DNA of 64,000 nt from a virus (taxonomy: Duplodnaviria > Caudoviricetes), in the IMG/VR virus record IMGVR_UViG_3300005541_000010, positions 825 through 64,824 of that record. One strand, 5' to 3'. Shown piece by piece: positions 54,528 through 64,000 of the stretch. Under the pieces are notes generated by a model. The model saw nothing but the letters and a program-made list of their open reading frames with translations, was not told the origin of the DNA and searched no databases. The stretch's first letter is position 1; every line of letters begins with the position of its first letter. A program made the translations under genes and the position numbers.

Positions 54528-57500
54528 TTGCCAGACCTGAGCCAAAGCCTCGCATACCTGCAAGCCCTCCAGAGTCTTGCGGGCAGCGTGCCGACGGCGC
54601 CGCCAGGGACTCAGAGTTCCGGTAGCTCTGCTGCCCGTCCATTCGCGCAACCGGGCGCGACGTATGGATTCAGCGGCAGTAACACCCCCGGTGGCAGTTC
54701 CTCTGGTGGTTCGGCGTACACGCCAGCCGGCACCGCCAGCAGTCCGCTTGCCCAGCTCCTGACCGGTGGCACCGCCAGCGCCGCGCTCGCACCACTCATC
54801 GCCGGTCTCGCGAGCAGTCAACCGCAAACACAACCGCAATCCTCCGCACCCAACACACAGATGTTGGGTGGTGGTTTGAACACTCTAGGCCAGTACGCGC
54901 CGACACTCTCGGGTCTCACCGGCGACGCCGGTAACGCGCTCGGCATCGTGGGCGGACTGGAGGCCGGCGGCGCGCGCGGCGATCTTGGTGCCGCGGCAAA
55001 CGCAGCCAAGCTCGCCGGCAACACCACCGGGACATCGAGCCTCACCGGCATCGGCAATGACCTCGGCTCCGCGCTCGGCCTGTACGGTGGCCTGCAAACC
55101 GGCGGCGTGGGCGGGTACGGCCAGGCGTTGGGCAGCGGCTTGAACCTGGCCGGCCAACTCGGTTCGCAGACTGGCGCGCTCTCCGGCGCCACCTCTGGCG
55201 CACTGAGTTCGGCCGGCGGTGAAATTGCTGCCCCGCTTGCCGTCTACAACGCCGTCAATAACTGGCAGTCCGGGAAGACCGGCTCGGACGCCCTGAACGG
55301 CGCTGAAGCCGGGGCTGCGGTCGGGTCGATCGTGCCGGTCATCGGCACCGGCATCGGCGCGCTCGCGGGTGGCGCGATTGGCGCGCTGTCCAGCGCACTG
55401 GGCCCTGGCGCAACCGATCCTGAGCAAGGCACGTGGGGGCAGTTCCTGAACGCCTACGACACGGGCGGTTCCAAGGCGACACAAGCCTACCTCGCAGCGC
55501 ACCCGGAACTACAGGGCGCCAACATATCGGCGTTCAAGAACGCGCACCTGGGTGGCGGCAACGGACCGAGCCCGTATGCGGCCCCTGGTGTCGCCGCCCA
55601 ACAGCAAGGCGAACAAACCGCCGCGACGCAAGGCGCACAGAACGCCGTGTCCGGTGGCAGCGGCGCCGGGGATTTCCAGGCGCTCGCGGGCCTGTTCGAC
55701 ATGCGCTCGAGCGACTTGCCCTTCTACCAGCAGTACGGCCGCATGGGTGAAGGCAAGTTCACCACCGACATGGCGAACCAGATCGACAGTGCGATCAAGG
55801 GCGGGAAGATTTCCGCCAACGCGACGCCGCAGCAAATTTATAGCCAGGTCGTCAACCCCTGGATCAGCGGCATGAACAACAGCGCTTCCAGCACCGGCAA
55901 GGGCTGGGCGGCGCAGGGCACCGGGGCCAGCGGCGGCGACATCGAAGGACAGATGCAGGCACCGGTGCAGCAACTCCTGACGAACCTCATCAGCAATTAC
56001 CAGCAGGGGCAGCCGTTCTACACGGTCGGCGGCTCGCAAGTACAGCTCCCCGCGTACGCGGCCAAAGGTGGATCAATGGACAGGAAGCGGCGCGACATGC
56101 GCGAAATCTACAAGGGCAGCTTCAAGGAGCGCCGCTTCGATAGCGGTGGCAGCGCGTACAACAACTACGCCGGCTACATCTCAAACAACGTCTCACCCGG
56201 CTCGTTGGACTACTTCTCGCCCGCGCTCGGTGGCAACACCACCGACCCTTACCAGCTCGCCAACGGCGCGAACTTGCCGACCAATCCGAATCTCGGTGTA
56301 CCCGGCACCGGACTGGGGGCCACAGGCGAAGGCACCGCGGGACTCACCCCGCAGCAACTGCAGGAGCTTGAGGGTGGGGCAACGGGGGCCGCCAATTCCG
56401 TCGGCCCTGGCGTCAATTCCGGCGCGCTGTCAGGACTACTCGGTAGCGGCGGACTAGGAAATGCCTGGAGTGGACTGAGCACCGGGCAACAGGTCGGCAC
56501 GCTGGGCGCGCTGCTGGCCGGTCTCGGCGCGATCCAGAACAACGGCCAGAACATGACGCAGCAGTACAAGCCCGCGCCGCCGCCGATGTTCGCCAACACC
56601 GGGCCGCGCGGCACCGCGCAAGGTGCTCCGGCTGGCGCGAATATGTACGGCAATTTCTCCACGCAGCCGCGCTCGCGCGTCAACCCCGGCATCACGAACT
56701 ACGCCACCTACGGCCAGGGGCCAGCGGCGATGTTTTACAGCCCGAGCCCCTCGCAGGCACCGGCCGCCGCCGGCGCGCTCAACCAGGCGTCCGCGATCCC
56801 GGCCGCCGCTCCCGCAGCACCACAAGGACAGTCGCTGCAGGCAGTCCTCGCGCAGCTCGCGCAGCAACCGGGCGTGGCGCGCGGAGTTGGGACGCAGAAC
56901 CCGAATGCCTACGCGATGGCGCGCGGCGGGGATGTTGGCCATTACTTTGTCGGCGGTTATGTAGGGCAGCCGCGCCCACCGATGATGGGTCAGCAACCGA
57001 TGGCACAACCCGGACGCATGCAGCAACCGCAAATGCCGTCGCGGCCAATACAACAGCCGTCGCCGATGGGGCCTCAGATGCCACTGCGGCAAGGGCTCCC
57101 GCCGCCGGTAGCCGCGAATCCGGGGGAGATGCCGGGAGGACAGTCAATGGCATCGCGACTCGGAGGCCCAGGTGTGCCAGGAGGAGCACCGCCGATGCCG
57201 CAACAGCCTCTGCGGCCATTTGACGGCAATCCTGTACGACCCATGTTGGCGCATGGCGGGGAGCTCGGCCGCGATCATCCAAGAGGCCACCGCGCGCAGG
57301 GACTGCTGGACGGACCAGGGGACGGCACATCGGACGACATTGTGCCGGCGGCCTTGAGTCAGGGCGAATACGTAATTCCCGCTCATGTTGTGGCTGCCCT
57401 CGGCAACGGCTCCAACAAGGCCGGCGCTGCGCGCCTCGATGAGCTGCAGAAGAACGTGCGTATGAAGACGGGTCAGGCGATGGCTCGCAACCAACATCCA

Positions 57501-57554
57501 ACGGGCAAGAACCGCGCGAAAAGCCCGGCCGCCTACATGCGGGGTGGCAAATGA
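54528..57554 (+). CDS. Ejection / internal virion protein
   Basis: 1008 aa G/A/Q-rich; several xxGG motifs; C-terminal GPGDGTSDDIVPAALSQGEYVIPA module. Confidence 0.7.
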   Translation: MPDLSQSLAYLQALQSLAGSVPTAPPGTQSSGSSAARPFAQPGATYGFSGSNTPGGSSSGGSAYTPAGTASSPLAQLLTGGTASAALAPLIAGLASSQPQTQPQSSAPNTQMLGGGLNTLGQYAPTLSGLTGDAGNALGIVGGLEAGGARGDLGAAANAAKLAGNTTGTSSLTGIGNDLGSALGLYGGLQTGGVGGYGQALGSGLNLAGQLGSQTGALSGATSGALSSAGGEIAAPLAVYNAVNNWQSGKTGSDALNGAEAGAAVGSIVPVIGTGIGALAGGAIGALSSALGPGATDPEQGTWGQFLNAYDTGGSKATQAYLAAHPELQGANISAFKNAHLGGGNGPSPYAAPGVAAQQQGEQTAATQGAQNAVSGGSGAGDFQALAGLFDMRSSDLPFYQQYGRMGEGKFTTDMANQIDSAIKGGKISANATPQQIYSQVVNPWISGMNNSASSTGKGWAAQGTGASGGDIEGQMQAPVQQLLTNLISNYQQGQPFYTVGGSQVQLPAYAAKGGSMDRKRRDMREIYKGSFKERRFDSGGSAYNNYAGYISNNVSPGSLDYFSPALGGNTTDPYQLANGANLPTNPNLGVPGTGLGATGEGTAGLTPQQLQELEGGATGAANSVGPGVNSGALSGLLGSGGLGNAWSGLSTGQQVGTLGALLAGLGAIQNNGQNMTQQYKPAPPPMFANTGPRGTAQGAPAGANMYGNFSTQPRSRVNPGITNYATYGQGPAAMFYSPSPSQAPAAAGALNQASAIPAAAPAAPQGQSLQAVLAQLAQQPGVARGVGTQNPNAYAMARGGDVGHYFVGGYVGQPRPPMMGQQPMAQPGRMQQPQMPSRPIQQPSPMGPQMPLRQGLPPPVAANPGEMPGGQSMASRLGGPGVPGGAPPMPQQPLRPFDGNPVRPMLAHGGELGRDHPRGHRAQGLLDGPGDGTSDDIVPAALSQGEYVIPAHVVAALGNGSNKAGAARLDELQKNVRMKTGQAMARNQHPTGKNRAKSPAAYMRGGK

Positions 57555-58684
57555 GCCTCACATCCTTCCTCAGCTCGGACCCGATGCAGTACACGTCGGC
57601 CACGTCGCAGTCGAGCACGCAACTGCCGGCGTGGTACGGGGACTATACGCAAGGCATCCTGCAAAACGCCGCGCAGTGGGCGAACCAGGGCTATCAGCAG
57701 TACGGCGGCCCGCGCGTAGCGCCACTGTCGGCGGACCAGCAGTCGTCCTACGGCACTGTCGCTGGTGCGCAAGGGTTGGGCCAAGGCATCGCACAGCAAG
57801 GCGTCGGCGCGATCAACAACGCGCTGCAGCAACCGAATGCCTCGCAGGCCGCGCAGCCGTACCTCAATTCCGCGTCCGCGCCCATCTCCTCGCAGATGGG
57901 CCAGTTCATGAATCCCTATAGCCAGCAGGTGGCGCAGACGGGCATGAACCTGATGAACACGCAGTTCAATCAGCAGGTGCTCCCAGGACTACAGAACCAG
58001 TTCACGCAGGCCGGTCAAGTCTATGGTGGCACGAATCAGGGCGTCGCGGCCGCGCAGCTCGGCGCGCAGTTGGGCGGTCAGGAAGCCGCGGCGACCGCGA
58101 ACACGCTCTCGAGCGGCTTCAACACCGCGCTCGGCGGTGCCGAGCAGCAGCAGGGACTCATGGCCGGACTCGGCAGTACGGCTGGGGGACTCGCGAACGC
58201 GGCGCAGAATACCGGTATCGGCGCGGGCTACGGACTCGGGTCGGTGGGCACGATGGCGCAGAACAACGCGCTCAATCAGGCGTCGATGCAAAACCAGATG
58301 GGCCAGCAGCAGCAGGCGCAGACCCAGCAGAACTACAACACCGCCTACCAGGACTTTCTGAACCAGACCAATTACCCGCTCACCGCCTCGCAGGGGATGC
58401 AGGGCGCGCTACAGGGCATCCAGGTCCCGCAGGGGCAGTCGAACTATCAATACTCGCCCTACGGCTTTGGCATGAGTCCGCTGGCGCAGGCCGGGTCCAC
58501 GTACGGTGCGCTGAATTCGATGTTCGGCAACGGCGGCTCGCTCTCCGGTCAGCCGAGCGGCGGTACGGTGAATAACTACTACACCGCCGCGCCGGCTGCG
58601 AAGGGCGGCCAAGTGCGCGCGCAACTGCACCTGCGGCGCAACTTCCCGTCCGCGTACCAGCAGTACAAGGCAGGTCACGCATGA
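57551..58684 (+). CDS. DNA pilot / ejection protein
   Basis: LPAWY..Y.Q, YQQYGGPRVAPLS.DQ, FMNPY, Q-rich, AYQDFLNQ.NYP. Confidence 0.75.
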   Translation: MSLTSFLSSDPMQYTSATSQSSTQLPAWYGDYTQGILQNAAQWANQGYQQYGGPRVAPLSADQQSSYGTVAGAQGLGQGIAQQGVGAINNALQQPNASQAAQPYLNSASAPISSQMGQFMNPYSQQVAQTGMNLMNTQFNQQVLPGLQNQFTQAGQVYGGTNQGVAAAQLGAQLGGQEAAATANTLSSGFNTALGGAEQQQGLMAGLGSTAGGLANAAQNTGIGAGYGLGSVGTMAQNNALNQASMQNQMGQQQQAQTQQNYNTAYQDFLNQTNYPLTASQGMQGALQGIQVPQGQSNYQYSPYGFGMSPLAQAGSTYGALNSMFGNGGSLSGQPSGGTVNNYYTAAPAAKGGQVRAQLHLRRNFPSAYQQYKAGHA

Positions 58685-60330
58685 GCTTGCCACCGGAAGT
58701 GATTCAGCAGTTACTGACGCAGAGTCAGAGCGGCCAGGTGCCCAACCTGGGCGGGGCGCCGATGTCGATACTGCCGCCGCGTCCACAGATGGCGTTCTCA
58801 CAGATACCCCCGGCGGTCGCCGGCAAGCAGATCATCCCAGGGGCCGCGCCACCGACGCCACAAGCGCCGCCATCGCCACTCGGCGGCACGCCACGACCAC
58901 CAGTGCCGTTCTCGCAGAACAACTCCGCGCTCGCGCCCGCGCCGCAGCAGGTCGAGCAGGGGTTACTGGAAACCGCCGCCACGCGCGCCGCGGCGATGCA
59001 TGAGGGGGAGGCATCCGCCTACGAGCGGGCCAGTGAAGGCGCGTCCACCTACAAGGACTTCCTGAACAGCATCGCGCAGCGGCTGACGCAAACCCCGGTC
59101 GGCCCGTCGGACGCCGAACGCTACGGCCGTCTCGCGCAGGCGATGGGCGGCCCGAATCCGACCGGCACCTTCGGCGGTCGTATGGCCAACGTCGGCGGTG
59201 CCTCTGCGGATGTGCTCGCGCAGCAGCGCGAGCAAGACCTGCAGAAGCAAATGCTGATCGCGAAGTATCAAGGCGAAGGCGCGCAGATGGGCATGCAGAT
59301 TCCCATGTTGCAGGCGCAGCGCTTCACGGGCATGGCGAACGCCGCTGACACGCGCGCTGCGCAACTCGCCGCGCGCCTGGGTACGCAGGGCATCCAGCAG
59401 CAGATGGCGGACATGCGCAGCGCGAACGCGCCCGTGATCAACGTCAACGGCGTGCCGCAGACGAACCAGGCGGCGGTGGATGCGCAAAGCCAACTCGCCG
59501 CAGCGAAAGCGGCGTCAGCGCAAAAGGCCAAGATGGACCTATATAAGGGTCTGTTCTCGCCCGAAGCACTCGACCTGGTGGCCGAGCAGGCATACCGCAC
59601 GGGGAAGCCGCCGCAGATCCCCTACGGGATCACGCGCAACGATCCGACCGCTTATGCACGGGCGATGGATATGGTAGCCGCCAAGGCCGCGGCCGACGGT
59701 AATTCAGCCGCCCAGGCGGTGGCGAATCAGCAGACGTACCACGCGGCGGGCGTCGCCATGACCGCGCTCACCAAGCAGGCGACGATCACCACCGCGTACG
59801 AGAAGTCCGCCGAAAAGGCGTTCGACACTGCGCTGCGGGAAAGCGACAACGTGGCCAGGCTCGGCAGCCCCTTCCTCAACCAAGGCATCATCGCGTTCAA
59901 GCGCGGTATCAAGGGCGACACCAACACCGGCCGTATGGTGGATGCGATCACCGCCGCGCAGACCGAGTACGCGCGCGTGTTGTCGGGCGCAATGGGGTCC
60001 GCCGCCATCACGGACAGTGCGCGCGACCAGGCGAAGGACCTGTTCTCGAAGATCGACAGCGCGGACATGCTGCGCGGCATCCTCGGGCAAGGTGGCACGG
60101 GCCGGGAAATCATGCACAACCGCACGAGTTCGTTCAATGACCAGCAGCAGGTGTTGCAGGACCTGATGACACGCCACGGCCCCGGACAAGGACAGATCGC
60201 CGGCAACGTGCCTGGCAGCACCGCGAAGACGGTCACGAAAGCGCAGGTGCAGGACTACGCGACCAAACACAACCTGCCGTACGCCGCCGCGCTCACGCAC
60301 GCAACGACCAACGGTTACACGGTGCAGTAG
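58681..60330 (+). CDS. Ejection protein
   Basis: 549 aa helical Q/A-rich protein in the ejection block. Confidence 0.65.
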   Translation: MSLPPEVIQQLLTQSQSGQVPNLGGAPMSILPPRPQMAFSQIPPAVAGKQIIPGAAPPTPQAPPSPLGGTPRPPVPFSQNNSALAPAPQQVEQGLLETAATRAAAMHEGEASAYERASEGASTYKDFLNSIAQRLTQTPVGPSDAERYGRLAQAMGGPNPTGTFGGRMANVGGASADVLAQQREQDLQKQMLIAKYQGEGAQMGMQIPMLQAQRFTGMANAADTRAAQLAARLGTQGIQQQMADMRSANAPVINVNGVPQTNQAAVDAQSQLAAAKAASAQKAKMDLYKGLFSPEALDLVAEQAYRTGKPPQIPYGITRNDPTAYARAMDMVAAKAAADGNSAAQAVANQQTYHAAGVAMTALTKQATITTAYEKSAEKAFDTALRESDNVARLGSPFLNQGIIAFKRGIKGDTNTGRMVDAITAAQTEYARVLSGAMGSAAITDSARDQAKDLFSKIDSADMLRGILGQGGTGREIMHNRTSSFNDQQQVLQDLMTRHGPGQGQIAGNVPGSTAKTVTKAQVQDYATKHNLPYAAALTHATTNGYTVQ

Positions 60331-63300
60331 GTGGACAACCCGCTCGACAGCCTGGCCCCGCCGTCGGCATCGGGGAATCCGTTGGATTCTCTGCCGCCGC
60401 CGCAGGCGCCGACTACCTGGGGACACTACGCGGGACTCGCCGGCCGCGCGGTCGCCGAAACGCCGATGAACATGATCTACGGTCTGCACGACCTCGGCAC
60501 CATGGCGATCGGTAATCCGCTCTCGCACCTCGCCAATAAGCACCTGGGCACGCACATCCCCGACGAGCCGCTGAAGACGCAACAGTGGTCCCAGGCGCTC
60601 ACCGACCTCGGCGTCCCCACGCCGCAAACGACGCCCGAACGCTACGGACTCGGCATCAGCGAAGGCATGATGGGCGGTCCCTTGGGAACCGCTGGCAAGG
60701 TCAATATGCTCAAGGCCGCCCTGTCTGGTGGCACGGGTGCAGCGTCCATGATGGGCGCAGCCGACATCGGCGCGCCGGAGCCAGTGCAAGCACTTGCGGG
60801 ACTTGCGGGCGCGGCTGCGGTACCGGCCGTAGCTGGCGTGGGGCGCGCGATCGCCCGGACGATGCCCGGCGTGAAGCAGCCGGTCGCGCCGCGCGTCACA
60901 CCACCACCAGACATGCCGCCCGAGAATGCCGTGCCGGTCTCGCTGGGCCTGAAGCTCGCGCCGGAGAAGGCCGGCGGCACGCTCGGCAAGATTGCACAAT
61001 CGGCCACCAATTCCGCGATTACCGAACGCATCCTGTCGCTGCAGAACGCGCCCACCGTGAACGCGCGCGTGGGCGAGGACCTGGGTCTGCCGACAGCCAC
61101 TCCACAGGCGCTCGCACAAGCCAAAGGGGCCGCGACGGTCGCCCACCGCCAGGTGGCGCACCTCGGCATTATTCCTACCGATGATGTGTACCGCGGGGCA
61201 ATCGGGGCCGTGGACGAGGGGGAAGGCACGCTCGGTGGACCGGCATTAGGCACGATCAAGACGCTCAAGGATTTCTATGCGAGCCGCCCGGCCTTCGACG
61301 CCGCGGACGCGCAACTGAAGATTCGCGCGATGCGGCGTATGGGCTTCGCGCAACTGCGCAACTGGCAGGACCCGGAAGGTCAGCAGGTCGGCAGCGCGCG
61401 CTTGCAAATCGCGGGCGCGCTCGAGGACCAGATAGACCGCAACATTGCCACGCGCCCGGATGTGCCGCCGGATCTGATCGACCAATTCCGCGCCGAGCGC
61501 GTGCAACTGGCGAAGATCAATTCCGCTCAGGCGGCACTGCGCGGGCCAAATATCTCCGTCGCCGATCTTGCCCGGCAGTTGAAGGCCAAGGTGCCGTTGA
61601 GCGACAACATGCGCGCGCTCGCGGAAAGCTACGCCACCCACGATCGCGTACTGCAGGACCCTGGCCGGGTACGCTACGCGGGGCCCATCACCTACGGCGA
61701 CATCGGGCTTGGCGCTCTTGGCCACTTCTTTAACCCGCTGGGTATGGCGGCACTCGCCGCGCGGCCACTGGTGCGCGCCGGGATCACGTCTGACCTGTAC
61801 CAGAAGTACGGCATCCAGGGTGGTGGCGGAACGCCGGCCGCGCCTTCCGCCGCGGTCCTGGCGGCGAAGTATCCGGCCCAAGCGCCGATCCAGCCGCAGG
61901 CCGGCGTACCGTTACAACCACTCGGCCAGGGGCCGCTGCAGCAGCTCGCCGCGAAGTACGCGCAGCCGCCGGAGCCACCCGAACCGCCGCCACCAGCCGC
62001 CAAACCGCCCCCGGACTACAGCCCATTGACCACGAAGTTCCGACAGGAACTTGAGAACGACTATGCGGGGGCGAAGGCGCGTTACGCCGCGCTCAATGAT
62101 CCGAAGATCGCAGACACCAAGGGCGGCCGCGTGCTCAACACCGATATGGCGCGCGAACTGTCGCCGGAGTACGCCGCTGACCGCACGCTCTCGCCAGACG
62201 TGCATGAGCCAGCGTCCGAGTTCATCAAGAAGATGTACGCCGAGCGCTTGGCGATGCCTGTGGCCCCAGGATACGACAACGTGGTACTGGGCACGGCCGG
62301 CGGAACGGGGGCCGGCAAGACGACGGCGATTGATTCGATCCCGGCGCTGAAAACAATTTCTGATCGGGCGCACACCATCTACGACACCAACATGGGCACG
62401 CTCAAGAGCGCGCACGCGAAGATCGAACAAGCGCTCGCAGCCGGCAAGCAGTTCCACGTCGCCTTGGTAGACCGCGATCCGGTCGAAGCACTGACCGAAG
62501 GTGCGCTCCCGCGGGCGATGCGGATGGGGCGCACCGTGCCGCTGCAGGACCACGCAGACACGCATGCCGGTGCGCGTGAAACCGTGCAGGCGTTGCAGCA
62601 GATTTACGCGAACAATCCGCGCGTCAAGTTTTCCATAATCAACAACCGCTTAGGCAAGGGAAACGCGCAGCTCACCAGCATGGATTCCCTGGCCGGAACC
62701 CGCTACAATGTACCCGTCAAGGAGTTGCGAGATGCCACCGATCAAGCGTTCCGAAATCGAGAAATTACGCCTGCAGTCTATCAAGGCACAACTGGCGAGG
62801 CCGCCCCTACCTCCTGGGGAACAGGAGCGGGCGGACAAGTTTCACCGGGAGATCGGCCAGAGCCTGGTGGACAACCTGAACCGCAACGTCAAGGCGGAAC
62901 AGACCAACCCGTAGTCACTGCCGCCGGGCGGCAGCTGAACACCCGTTACGAGCTCGTTGAGGCCCCCAGCCTCATCACGTCCGACCACCCCCAGTACCCC
63001 CAGGCGCTACAGCCGCGGCAGCGTACCCGGCTAGCCTCCCGCGCCCAGGTCGAGGGGATCGCCCGCGACCTCAATCCAGAGCTCTTAGGACGCTCTGCAA
63101 CGGCCGATACCGGGGCCCCGATCGTCGGCCCGGACAACGCCGTCGAGAGTGGCAACGGGCGCGTGATGGGCTTGCGGCGTGCTTATGAAGCATTCCCAGA
63201 CCGCGCACAAGCCTACAAGGACTTCCTGGGCACCCAGGGCTTCGATCCGGCCGGGATGACGCACCCGGTCCTCATTCGCCGCCGGCTGACGGACATGACC

Positions 63301-64000
63301 CCGGACGACCGGGCGGCGTTCACCAAGGAAGCGAACACCCCGGCGGTCATGCAGATGTCCGCGGCCGAACAGGCGCTCAGCGATGCCCCAAAGCTCGATG
63401 CCGCCACGCTGCAGCACCTGCACCCCGGAGAGCTCACCAGCACGCAGAACGCGAAGTTCGTCAGCAGCTTCTTCGGCAAGCTCGCGCCGACCGAAAAGAA
63501 CGCCTTCGTGGACCCCGACGGGCAGTTGTCCCAGGGCGGCATCCGGCGCCTGCAGGGGGCGATCCTGGCGAGGGGCTATGGGGGCACCCCGGAAGCGGCC
63601 GCAGTGCTCACGCGCGCCCTTGAATCCGGTGACAACGATGTACGCTCGATCACGGGCGCGTTGACGGATGCAGCGCCCGCCTTCGCGCAACTGCGCCAGG
63701 GGATCGAATCCGGGCACATCCCGCCGAGCCTGGACGTGGGCGACAAGCTCGCGCTGGCGGTTGAAAAGACCGCTCAGGTTCGTGCATCCGGGCGTTCGGT
63801 GGATGAGTACCTGAAACAGCAGGATGCGTTTACCCCGCTGGCCCCCGTGGTGGAAGGGTTCATGCGCGCGTTCTACAACCAGGGACTCACCCGTGCCGCG
63901 GGGCGCGAGGCGATCGCGAAGACCCTGGGGCTGTACGCCGAGCGTGCGCAGGCGCAGCGCCTCGACCAGGGCGACGTGTTCGGCAACAAGCCGGCGACCG
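60331..64000 (+). CDS. Giant polyvalent internal protein (3' partial): zeta-toxin-like kinase plus DdrB/ParB-like domain
   Basis: Frame 1 read by hand with no stop found; missing from the ORF track. GTAGGTGAGKTT P-loop at 62290-62325 with VHEPAS and GRTVP; later YELVEA...LQPRQR...LNPELL...GAPIVGPDNAVESGNGR. Confidence 0.85.
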   Translation, partial: MDNPLDSLAPPSASGNPLDSLPPPQAPTTWGHYAGLAGRAVAETPMNMIYGLHDLGTMAIGNPLSHLANKHLGTHIPDEPLKTQQWSQALTDLGVPTPQTTPERYGLGISEGMMGGPLGTAGKVNMLKAALSGGTGAASMMGAADIGAPEPVQALAGLAGAAAVPAVAGVGRAIARTMPGVKQPVAPRVTPPPDMPPENAVPVSLGLKLAPEKAGGTLGKIAQSATNSAITERILSLQNAPTVNARVGEDLGLPTATPQALAQAKGAATVAHRQVAHLGIIPTDDVYRGAIGAVDEGEGTLGGPALGTIKTLKDFYASRPAFDAADAQLKIRAMRRMGFAQLRNWQDPEGQQVGSARLQIAGALEDQIDRNIATRPDVPPDLIDQFRAERVQLAKINSAQAALRGPNISVADLARQLKAKVPLSDNMRALAESYATHDRVLQDPGRVRYAGPITYGDIGLGALGHFFNPLGMAALAARPLVRAGITSDLYQKYGIQGGGGTPAAPSAAVLAAKYPAQAPIQPQAGVPLQPLGQGPLQQLAAKYAQPPEPPEPPPPAAKPPPDYSPLTTKFRQELENDYAGAKARYAALNDPKIADTKGGRVLNTDMARELSPEYAADRTLSPDVHEPASEFIKKMYAERLAMPVAPGYDNVVLGTAGGTGAGKTTAIDSIPALKTISDRAHTIYDTNMGTLKSAHAKIEQALAAGKQFHVALVDRDPVEALTEGALPRAMRMGRTVPLQDHADTHAGARETVQALQQIYANNPRVKFSIINNRLGKGNAQLTSMDSLAGTRYNVPVKELRDATDQAFRNREITPAVYQGTTGEAAPTSWGTGAGGQVSPGDRPEPGGQPEPQRQGGTDQPVVTAAGRQLNTRYELVEAPSLITSDHPQYPQALQPRQRTRLASRAQVEGIARDLNPELLGRSATADTGAPIVGPDNAVESGNGRVMGLRRAYEAFPDRAQAYKDFLGTQGFDPAGMTHPVLIRRRLTDMTPDDRAAFTKEANTPAVMQMSAAEQALSDAPKLDAATLQHLHPGELTSTQNAKFVSSFFGKLAPTEKNAFVDPDGQLSQGGIRRLQGAILARGYGGTPEAAAVLTRALESGDNDVRSITGALTDAAPAFAQLRQGIESGHIPPSLDVGDKLALAVEKTAQVRASGRSVDEYLKQQDAFTPLAPVVEGFMRAFYNQGLTRAAGREAIAKTLGLYAERAQAQRLDQGDVFGNKPAT
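62732..62914 (+). CDS. 60-aa ORF overprinted in the +1 frame of the giant gene
   Basis: AAGGAG SD 7 nt before the ATG; helical charged product MPPIKRSEIEKLRLQSIKAQL...; frame-1 codon bias collapses over this stretch. Confidence 0.65.
   Translation: MPPIKRSEIEKLRLQSIKAQLARPPLPPGEQERADKFHREIGQSLVDNLNRNVKAEQTNP

Follow-up and report, generated by a model that had tools for sequence, protein, structure and literature searches.

The locus examined here raises the question of whether a short open reading frame (ORF) lying out of frame inside a much larger phage gene is itself a gene and, if so, what its product does to the protein encoded around it. The window, a 64,000-nucleotide stretch taken from a 64.8-kb IMG/VR virus record of soil-metagenome origin (bases 825-64824), contains the first 1223 codons of a giant “polyvalent” gene (60331-63999, plus strand) that is cut by the end of the IMG/VR record. 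This host gene encodes a zeta-toxin-like kinase domain (61981-62796). Towards the 3′ end of the kinase-coding segment, on the same strand, a Shine–Dalgarno (SD) sequence, AAGGAG (62719-62724), lies 7 nucleotides (nt) upstream of an ATG that opens a 60-codon ORF in the +1 frame (62732-62914, TAG stop at 62912-62914), and the encoded peptide is identical to the one reported in a preliminary description of this DNA. Sequence comparison makes it very probable that this overprinted ORF is a genuine protein-coding gene. Modelling predicts that its product binds the kinase domain, which it may keep inactive.

The nested frame and its conservation

The SD sequence reads Lys-Glu in the host frame, and an upstream in-frame ATG at 62708, which would give 68 codons, has no SD. 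The locus thus has the form of an embedded gene, a complete same-strand ORF with its own start signals inside another reading frame. The nested ORF begins within the kinase-coding part, where its first ~20 codons coincide with the two final helices of that domain (nt 62716-62752 and 62770-62791 in the model), and the remainder covers a G/P/Q-rich linker that precedes a ParB domain. The preliminary description had placed the ORF in the linker between the two domains, which is right for most of its codons but not for these first ~20. It had also described A/T-ending codons in the host frame opposite G/C-ending codons in the second half of the nested frame, and this contrast is borne out: the host G+C fraction at codon positions 1/2/3 is 0.70/0.51/0.78 over the whole gene versus 0.77/0.65/0.38 in 62731-62910, and 28/30 of nested codons 31-60 end in G or C, as against 9/31 host codons over the same DNA.

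To assess whether such a frame could arise by chance, the host gene was recoded synonymously 3000 times. Openness is not significant, since 33% of recodings keep at least 68 open codons; it is also uninformative, because +1 stops require T at host codon position 2 and the linker is poor in hydrophobic residues. The other two measures set the real sequence apart. Host G+C at third codon positions (GC3) is 0.43 over the region compared with 0.757±0.049 in the recodings (minimum 0.59), and the +1 peptide scores 28.0 bits against its family profile compared with 1.5±2.1 (maximum 13.4); the hidden Markov model used for scoring draws on 11 homologous small ORFs only, most of them free of overlap. 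Because both values lie far outside the null distribution, the A/T-ending codon use of the host frame is meaningful.

The nested frame also accounts for a feature of the host protein. The linker carries the motif GGQPEPQR (62866-62889, plus strand), written in rare A/T-ending codons and conserved in many kinase-ParB polyvalent proteins within an otherwise variable linker. It is the shadow of the nested sequence D-N-L-N-R-N-V, which forces the host to write CAA-CCT-GAA-CCG-CAA and so explains the rare codons. A reader working at the protein level could mistake GGQPEPQR for a functional linker motif. A compensated double frameshift, in which the nested frame would be ancestral and the host linker shifted, was considered and rejected, because the host frames of homologues can be aligned across the linker, GGQPEPQR included, and no fused form has a stop in the host frame.

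To follow the frame across relatives, 123 kinase-bearing loci were gathered, of which 109 are distinct, and the counts below refer to these 109. Genome and metagenome scans with a first alignment caught a generic P-loop pattern and contributed only 2 and 5 loci, respectively; a DNA-level search of phage records with this region gave no match, and a single-sequence scan of viral contigs found nothing. The +1 frame is open in 109/109 loci from before the kinase end to 80-200 nt past it, compared with 42/109 for the +2 frame. A +1 ATG is present in 106/109 loci and is accompanied by an SD at 4-12 nt in 88/109. Control windows of equal size, taken in the same frame further upstream in the kinase (n=436), contain an ATG in 53% of cases and an SD with ATG in 2.5%. 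The proposal that homologous genes would keep a +1 ORF with an SD is upheld by these counts. Start positions range from -5 to -77 nt, and in L083, L019, L015, L018 and L028 the SD and ATG occupy the same position as in the window.

Many of the relatives are not embedded. In 55 loci the kinase ORF ends no more than 17 codons past a conserved V-Y-R-G-F, and the small ORF extends further downstream as a tightly packed gene of its own. In L017, for example, the kinase spans 1168-2190, the small ORF 2144-2299 and the next gene starts at 2309; the peptide reads F-H-R-K-I-G-Q-S-M-V-D-T-L-N-K-R where there is no other coding frame, and the window has F-H-R-E-I-G-Q-S-L-V-D-N-L-N-R-N. Homologues of low G+C content (host GC3 0.32) retain a 71-codon +1 ORF. 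At 42 ParB loci without the kinase there is no such ORF and the +1 frame holds only junk, so the small gene goes with the kinase and not with ParB. Antisense frames contain stops in at least 77/109 loci. In L088 (1898-2074 and downstream), the kinase and nested gene are kept, the host frame then differs and no ParB follows directly; fusion to other downstream sequence shows that kinase and nested gene travel together, as a module, from one polyvalent protein to another. The same +1 slot is also taken by two divergent subfamilies, one in L004 (2129-2353), L005 (2129-2350) and L159, the other in L007 (2138-2323), L008 and L011. One ends in ...A-S-E-E-E-I-Q-M-L-L-D-A-E-K-K-A-G-Y-P..., and the other contains L-L-S-L-P-D-T-D-R-A-A-L-L-R-A-M-P and has weak MgtE_N matches. 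Both show coding-type substitutions, but their scores with the main-family profile are near 0, which may reflect a refilled slot or strong divergence within the family.

Substitution patterns indicate that the nested frame is under purifying selection, with suppressed host-synonymous change and change at the embedded wobble position. In close pairs it is host position 3 that varies most in the kinase, whereas in the overlap the most variable is host position 1, where the nested frame has its wobble. Differences between L007 and L008 at host positions 1/2/3 number 8/2/54 in the kinase and 18/4/6 in the overlap (Fisher p 7e-8), and between L004 and L005 38/14/76 and 35/17/27 (p 0.004). Host-synonymous change falls three-fold between L016 and L020. 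Where the small ORF is not overlapped, L009 and L024 differ at 7/8/24 of its own codon positions, mostly the third. The closest relative of the window is L088, with 61% kinase identity. Across the 18-codon motif block, the nested frames of the two have 9 identical, 6 synonymous and 3 nonsynonymous codons, and the host frames 11 identical, 1 synonymous and 7 nonsynonymous.

These data bear on three explanations that dispense with an independently translated protein. An open frame arising by chance would be a by-product of a G/P/Q-rich linker in a 65% G+C genome, with the SD and ATG as accidents of Lys-Glu and Asp-Ala codons. The share of recodings that stay open and the abundance of spurious ORFs of at least 40 residues (70 in 9 kb) are in keeping with this, but host GC3 lies 6.7 standard deviations below expectation and the profile score 12.7 above the null mean, beyond all 3000 recodings; low-G+C homologues keep the ORF, its substitutions are of the coding type and stand-alone homologues exist, which leaves chance hardly credible. 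Still harder to credit is a constraint on host synonymous sites from a nucleic-acid element, be it an RNA structure, an internal regulatory site or an antisense gene, in place of a sense +1 protein. Lowered synonymous variation alone cannot discriminate here, and one antisense frame has the same wobble position, but the +1 frame shows amino-acid conservation with synonymous change, antisense frames are interrupted in most loci, a scan of 62300-63100 revealed no promoter-like or terminator-like sites, and the motif persists in sequences whose divergence is too great for conservation at the nucleotide level.

A programmed +1 (or -2) ribosomal frameshift near the kinase end would instead yield a truncated kinase with an alternative C-terminal helical tail. 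Phages often obtain two products per gene by frameshifting, and the ORF is always +1 and always starts inside the last helices of the kinase. The frequencies of ATG and of SD with ATG, set against the control windows, speak for initiation, however; gene callers independently call stand-alone versions from these ATGs, and no conserved slippery heptamer was seen on reading the overlap, for which no formal scan was made. The range of start positions points to a retained start site and not to one fixed slippery site. Because SD and ATG are enriched, independent initiation is favoured, and a frameshifted tail is very unlikely.

A small-protein family and its predicted binding to the kinase

Judged by sequence, the nested product belongs to an unnamed family of 50-75 residues, in which the N-terminal part is variable and a C-terminal amphipathic helix ending in L-N-[RKQ]-x-[VA] is conserved. 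By the same comparisons, in phage genomes the family is always found at the 3′ end of one type of zeta-toxin-like kinase, the ng_zeta1 subclass. In the window the defining helix motif is F-H-R-E-I-G-Q-S-L-V-D-N-L-N-R-N-V-K (62840-62893, plus strand), and the alignment of 33 members gives the consensus aromatic-x3-h-[GA]-[QE]-x-h-h-x-x-[LIM]-N-[RKQ]-x-[VA], recognisable across sequences too diverged for nucleotide conservation. The nested protein is modelled as two helices (residues 6-22 and 30-58; pLDDT 90, pTM 0.43). An exhaustive profile search of 1.84 billion representatives returned 92 called proteins, mostly of 50-75 residues; the ten that were looked up are without a name or labelled “hypothetical protein”. 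A word-indexed protein search with the same small-protein profile returned only 1 protein. P0124, P0126 and P0129 carry two tandem copies of the conserved helix motif.

No Pfam families were found among the 33 members, and the 33-member profile matched no PDB chain sequence with E below 0.4; with E up to 10 against all PDB chains it did not return the epsilon chains of 6EPG or 6EPH. The three-helix bundle of epsilon and PezA is likewise missing, the model having two helices and no Foldseek match, and the ESM Atlas likewise yielded no relative of the small protein. Matches to MgtE_N (2 members, E 0.001) and LPD26 (E 0.008) were weak and were taken as chance.

The kinase domain (plus strand), by contrast with its small partner, has recognisable kin, identified through Pfam, phmmer, an AlphaFold2 (AF2) model, Foldseek and invariant alignment columns. 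It matches the Pfam family Zeta_toxin (PF06414) with 27.1 bits (cut-off 22.3) and contains the P-loop GGTGAGK (62299-62319), with a conserved N-T-D-x-A-R-E motif on its 5′ side. The nearest solved relative by sequence is the gonococcal ng_zeta1 (6EPH_B, phmmer E 7.5e-4), which is also the nearest fold to the AF2 model (pLDDT 92; Foldseek E 2e-12, TM 0.70-0.73), followed by AvrRxo1, zeta and PezT. Residues D55/R58/E59, G107-K113, D135/N137 and R178/R184 are invariant in 34 sequences. Zeta kinases as a class phosphorylate UDP-sugar precursors of the cell wall and are toxic when produced without a partner. The domain thus combines the P-loop phosphotransferase fold, the Walker A lysine and the catalytic Asp block N-terminal to the P-loop that mark a zeta kinase. 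The Foldseek alignment covers only ~270/394 residues of ng_zeta1, whose C-terminal OB-fold domain is absent here; the linker and the ddrB-like ParB domain follow the kinase instead.

In the crystal structures of its closest solved relatives, the kinase is in every case accompanied by a small partner protein (ng_epsilon1, AvrRxo1-ORF2, epsilon and PezA). Co-folding of the kinase domain with the small protein gave ipSAE values of 0.73-0.74 in three runs versus 0.14, 0.00 and 0.00 for the controls, a mark reached by 58/80 solved complexes and 2/110 mismatched pairs. At least 87% of contacts are common to the runs, and the partner pLDDT is 71-73. The predicted kinase contacts comprise residues 94, 99-101, 120-129, 139-157, 193-218, 231 and 233. 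Peptide residues 4-20 are placed between kinase helices 141-153 and 188-208, and the conserved C-terminal helix packs against kinase residues 94-101, 120-129, 218 and 231-233. The predicted complex, a check put forward in the preliminary description, thereby supports binding, and on this modelling the small protein probably binds the kinase domain. Of the features of a type II pair, co-location is seen in 109/109 loci, and direct binding is predicted, with an ipSAE of 0.74 against 0.14 for the best control.

Role of the embedded gene product

The two genes are arranged in one of two ways. Where the kinase is a separate gene, the small gene begins some 50-90 nt inside the kinase 3′ end and runs past the kinase stop; where the kinase is fused to further domains, here ddrB-ParB and RadC-JAB, the small gene is wholly embedded and the host “linker” is written around it. 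Such a linker explains both the rare A/T-ending codons and the conserved GGQPEPQR. Ribosomes would start on the nested gene within the host mRNA, using the strong SD and the ATG that belong to it; translation from that mRNA is assumed because there is no promoter-like site nearby. The sequencing runs listed for this DNA comprise one of DNA, probably from the source soil, and none of RNA. The two-helix product, predicted to bind the kinase domain, would then most likely keep the kinase inactive during phage protein synthesis, by analogy with ng_epsilon1, epsilon and PezA. As a whole, this account of an overprinted gene whose kinase-binding product holds the kinase inactive is our best explanation, and we put its chances at slightly better than even.

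By analogy, an inhibitor or antidote is the most likely role for the small protein, at about even odds, with a cofactor, chaperone or assembly role next; this order rests on the ng_epsilon1 comparison and on the small gene never being found apart from the kinase. The preliminary description had cast the ORF as a candidate antitoxin gene, whose product would be kept out of the virion so that the kinase acts only after injection into the next cell. A real, selected gene with its own SD and start, a tie to the zeta-like kinase and not to ParB, and predicted binding all stand from that interpretation; the antitoxin role, the exclusion from the virion and the activation after injection are conjectural. 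The small protein is not related to epsilon or PezA.

Several points weigh against this account. Translation, binding, kinase toxicity and neutralisation are predicted or argued by analogy. The small protein has no detectable similarity to any antitoxin in Pfam, PDB sequences, Foldseek or the ESM Atlas, and the kinase gene precedes a partner that overlaps its end, an order opposite to that of classical epsilon/zeta. Among the predicted contacts, the most confident ones use the poorly conserved N-terminal helix (residues 4-20) of the window peptide and exclude both the P-loop (107-113) and the conserved Asp55/Arg58/Glu59; with the P-loop missing from them, blockage of the ATP site cannot be claimed. 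The co-folding result, for which the alignments were built in this analysis, may partly reflect memory of the solved ng_epsilon1/ng_zeta1 complex. As the clade of the window offers a single moderately close relative, L088, the substitution test specific to the window is small (p 0.05). Finally, obligate linkage fits an activator, a chaperone or an assembly partner equally well.

That last point belongs to a possible but less favoured explanation, in which the gene is real and its product binds the kinase without inhibiting it, serving as a cofactor or activator that the kinase needs, as a chaperone for its folding, or as an adaptor for virion assembly or exit. A conserved, kinase-linked small protein predicted to bind the kinase suits these roles just as well, and confident contacts that avoid the P-loop and the catalytic Asp motif are in their favour. 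AvrRxo1-ORF2, the partner of the structural relative AvrRxo1, is described as a chaperone as well as an antitoxin. Set against this, the related kinases with a solved small partner (ng_zeta1, zeta, PezT and AvrRxo1) are all toxins restrained by that partner. A further observation comes from a 207-kb ENA bacterial scaffold (L168, 5741-7488) with TIM, SecG, CTP synthase and KdsA as neighbours. It carries an intact gene for a 108-residue small protein in which the helix motif is duplicated. Upstream lies a kinase fragment with residues 165-238 only; downstream, the N-terminal block of a kinase is joined directly to an I-S-E-A-V-F-K-G-F end, the catalytic core being deleted. An intact small ORF beside decayed kinase is more easily explained for an antidote than for a cofactor, and this gene, a single case, may be an antidote orphaned beside toxins that have decayed.

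Should the product inhibit the kinase, a wider reading can be drawn, which we consider speculative and rather improbable. An antidote inside the toxin gene would be inseparable from it by recombination as the kinase shuffles between polyvalent proteins; it would be left behind at packaging, so that the kinase became active only in the next cell, and orphan or duplicated bacterial copies, as on the L168 scaffold, would provide immunity against the injected kinase. If true, this would be a new kind of anti-phage defence by a captured antidote.

The polyvalent host gene and known systems

The full-length host product on record has 1754 residues (P0003, on a 64,981-bp contig) and contains Zeta_toxin (residues 675-759), ddrB-like ParB (866-985) and RadC-like JAB (1540-1584) domains, the last near its C terminus. 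In the window the ParB domain (62926-63285, plus strand; E 6e-34) lies 3′ of the nested gene. With several unrelated conflict-type domains in one polypeptide, the host is a polyvalent protein, and the combination of kinase and ddrB-ParB occurs in more than 700 proteins. PHROGs and Pfam gave no informative match for its N-terminal 550 residues. Upstream of the giant gene, at 54528-60330 on the plus strand, are three large consecutive ORFs (1008, 377 and 549 residues) whose stops and starts overlap or abut; they have no Pfam match and a single marginal PHROG match, which makes “ejection protein” a putative label for them. Because these neighbouring large ORFs lack recognisable families, the giant protein is only putatively virion cargo, by analogy with polyvalent proteins. 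A zeta-like kinase is among the polyvalent-protein domains listed by Iyer et al. (2017, PMC5512222), according to whom it probably weakens the cell wall on entry. The host gene is typical of that class in its zeta-like kinase, ddrB-ParB and RadC-JAB, but PMC5512222 mentions no antitoxin, immunity gene or overlapping ORF for the zeta-like domain.

The nearest described system is ng_epsilon1/ng_zeta1 from plasmids of N. gonorrhoeae (PDB 6EPG/6EPH/6EPI). There, ng_zeta1 lyses E. coli unless ng_epsilon1 is co-expressed, and ng_epsilon1, which is unrelated to other epsilons and non-globular, wraps the kinase 1:1 and covers the ATP site (Rocker et al. 2018, PMC5923241). The likeness extends to kinase sequence and fold, the rearranged order that puts the catalytic Asp block before the P-loop, and a short, non-globular helical partner on the kinase surface at 1:1, established by crystallography there and predicted here. 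The small proteins, however, have no detectable sequence or fold similarity. The gonococcal genes form a bicistronic operon, whereas the partner here overlaps or is embedded in the 3′ side of the kinase gene, and a plasmid toxin–antitoxin cassette with neutralisation contrasts with a giant protein of a phage structural module known from sequence. Epsilon/zeta of pSM19035 and PezA/PezT (PDB 1GVN, 3Q8X and 2P5T) also pair a zeta-type P-loop kinase fold with a small helical protein encoded next to it. In epsilon and PezA the C-domain is a three-helix bundle, which forms 2:2 heterotetramers and reaches into the ATP site (PMC5923241). The partner here differs in having two helices and an unrelated sequence; its gene lies behind or within that of the kinase, and the predicted stoichiometry of binding is 1:1.

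For the gene arrangement, the closest parallel is lambda Rz1, a small gene that lies entirely inside Rz in the +1 frame, complete with an SD and a start of its own, and whose product, a secreted lipoprotein spanin subunit, works with that of Rz. Both cases have a wholly embedded +1 phage gene with its own SD and start whose product is a partner of the containing gene's product, although here the partnership is predicted. They differ in that the peptide here is helical, of cytoplasmic type and linked to a kinase domain, and in that many of its relatives, instead of being embedded, only run across the 3′ end of a kinase gene that is shorter. Zeta-type kinases paired with small proteins are a known kind of system, as are phage genes embedded out of frame, for which Rz1 within Rz is an example. 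The partner family, its kinase-first overlapping placement and its full embedding in polyvalent genes appear undescribed; as the preliminary description had surmised, we found no published account of the arrangement in the searchable literature.

Annotation largely misses this gene, the embedded forms being beyond gene finders and the stand-alone forms appearing only as unnamed or “hypothetical” proteins. Its recognition explains the GGQPEPQR-type motif and the rare codons within the variable linker of many polyvalent proteins. Because overlapped and non-overlapped forms both exist, it offers a well-controlled overlapping gene of a bacterial virus in which the evolution of overprinting is directly testable. 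An inhibitory product would account for the safe synthesis of a cell-wall-poisoning kinase domain as part of a structural protein, and it would represent a third, unrelated type of antitoxin for the zeta family, with the antidote gene physically locked inside the toxin gene.

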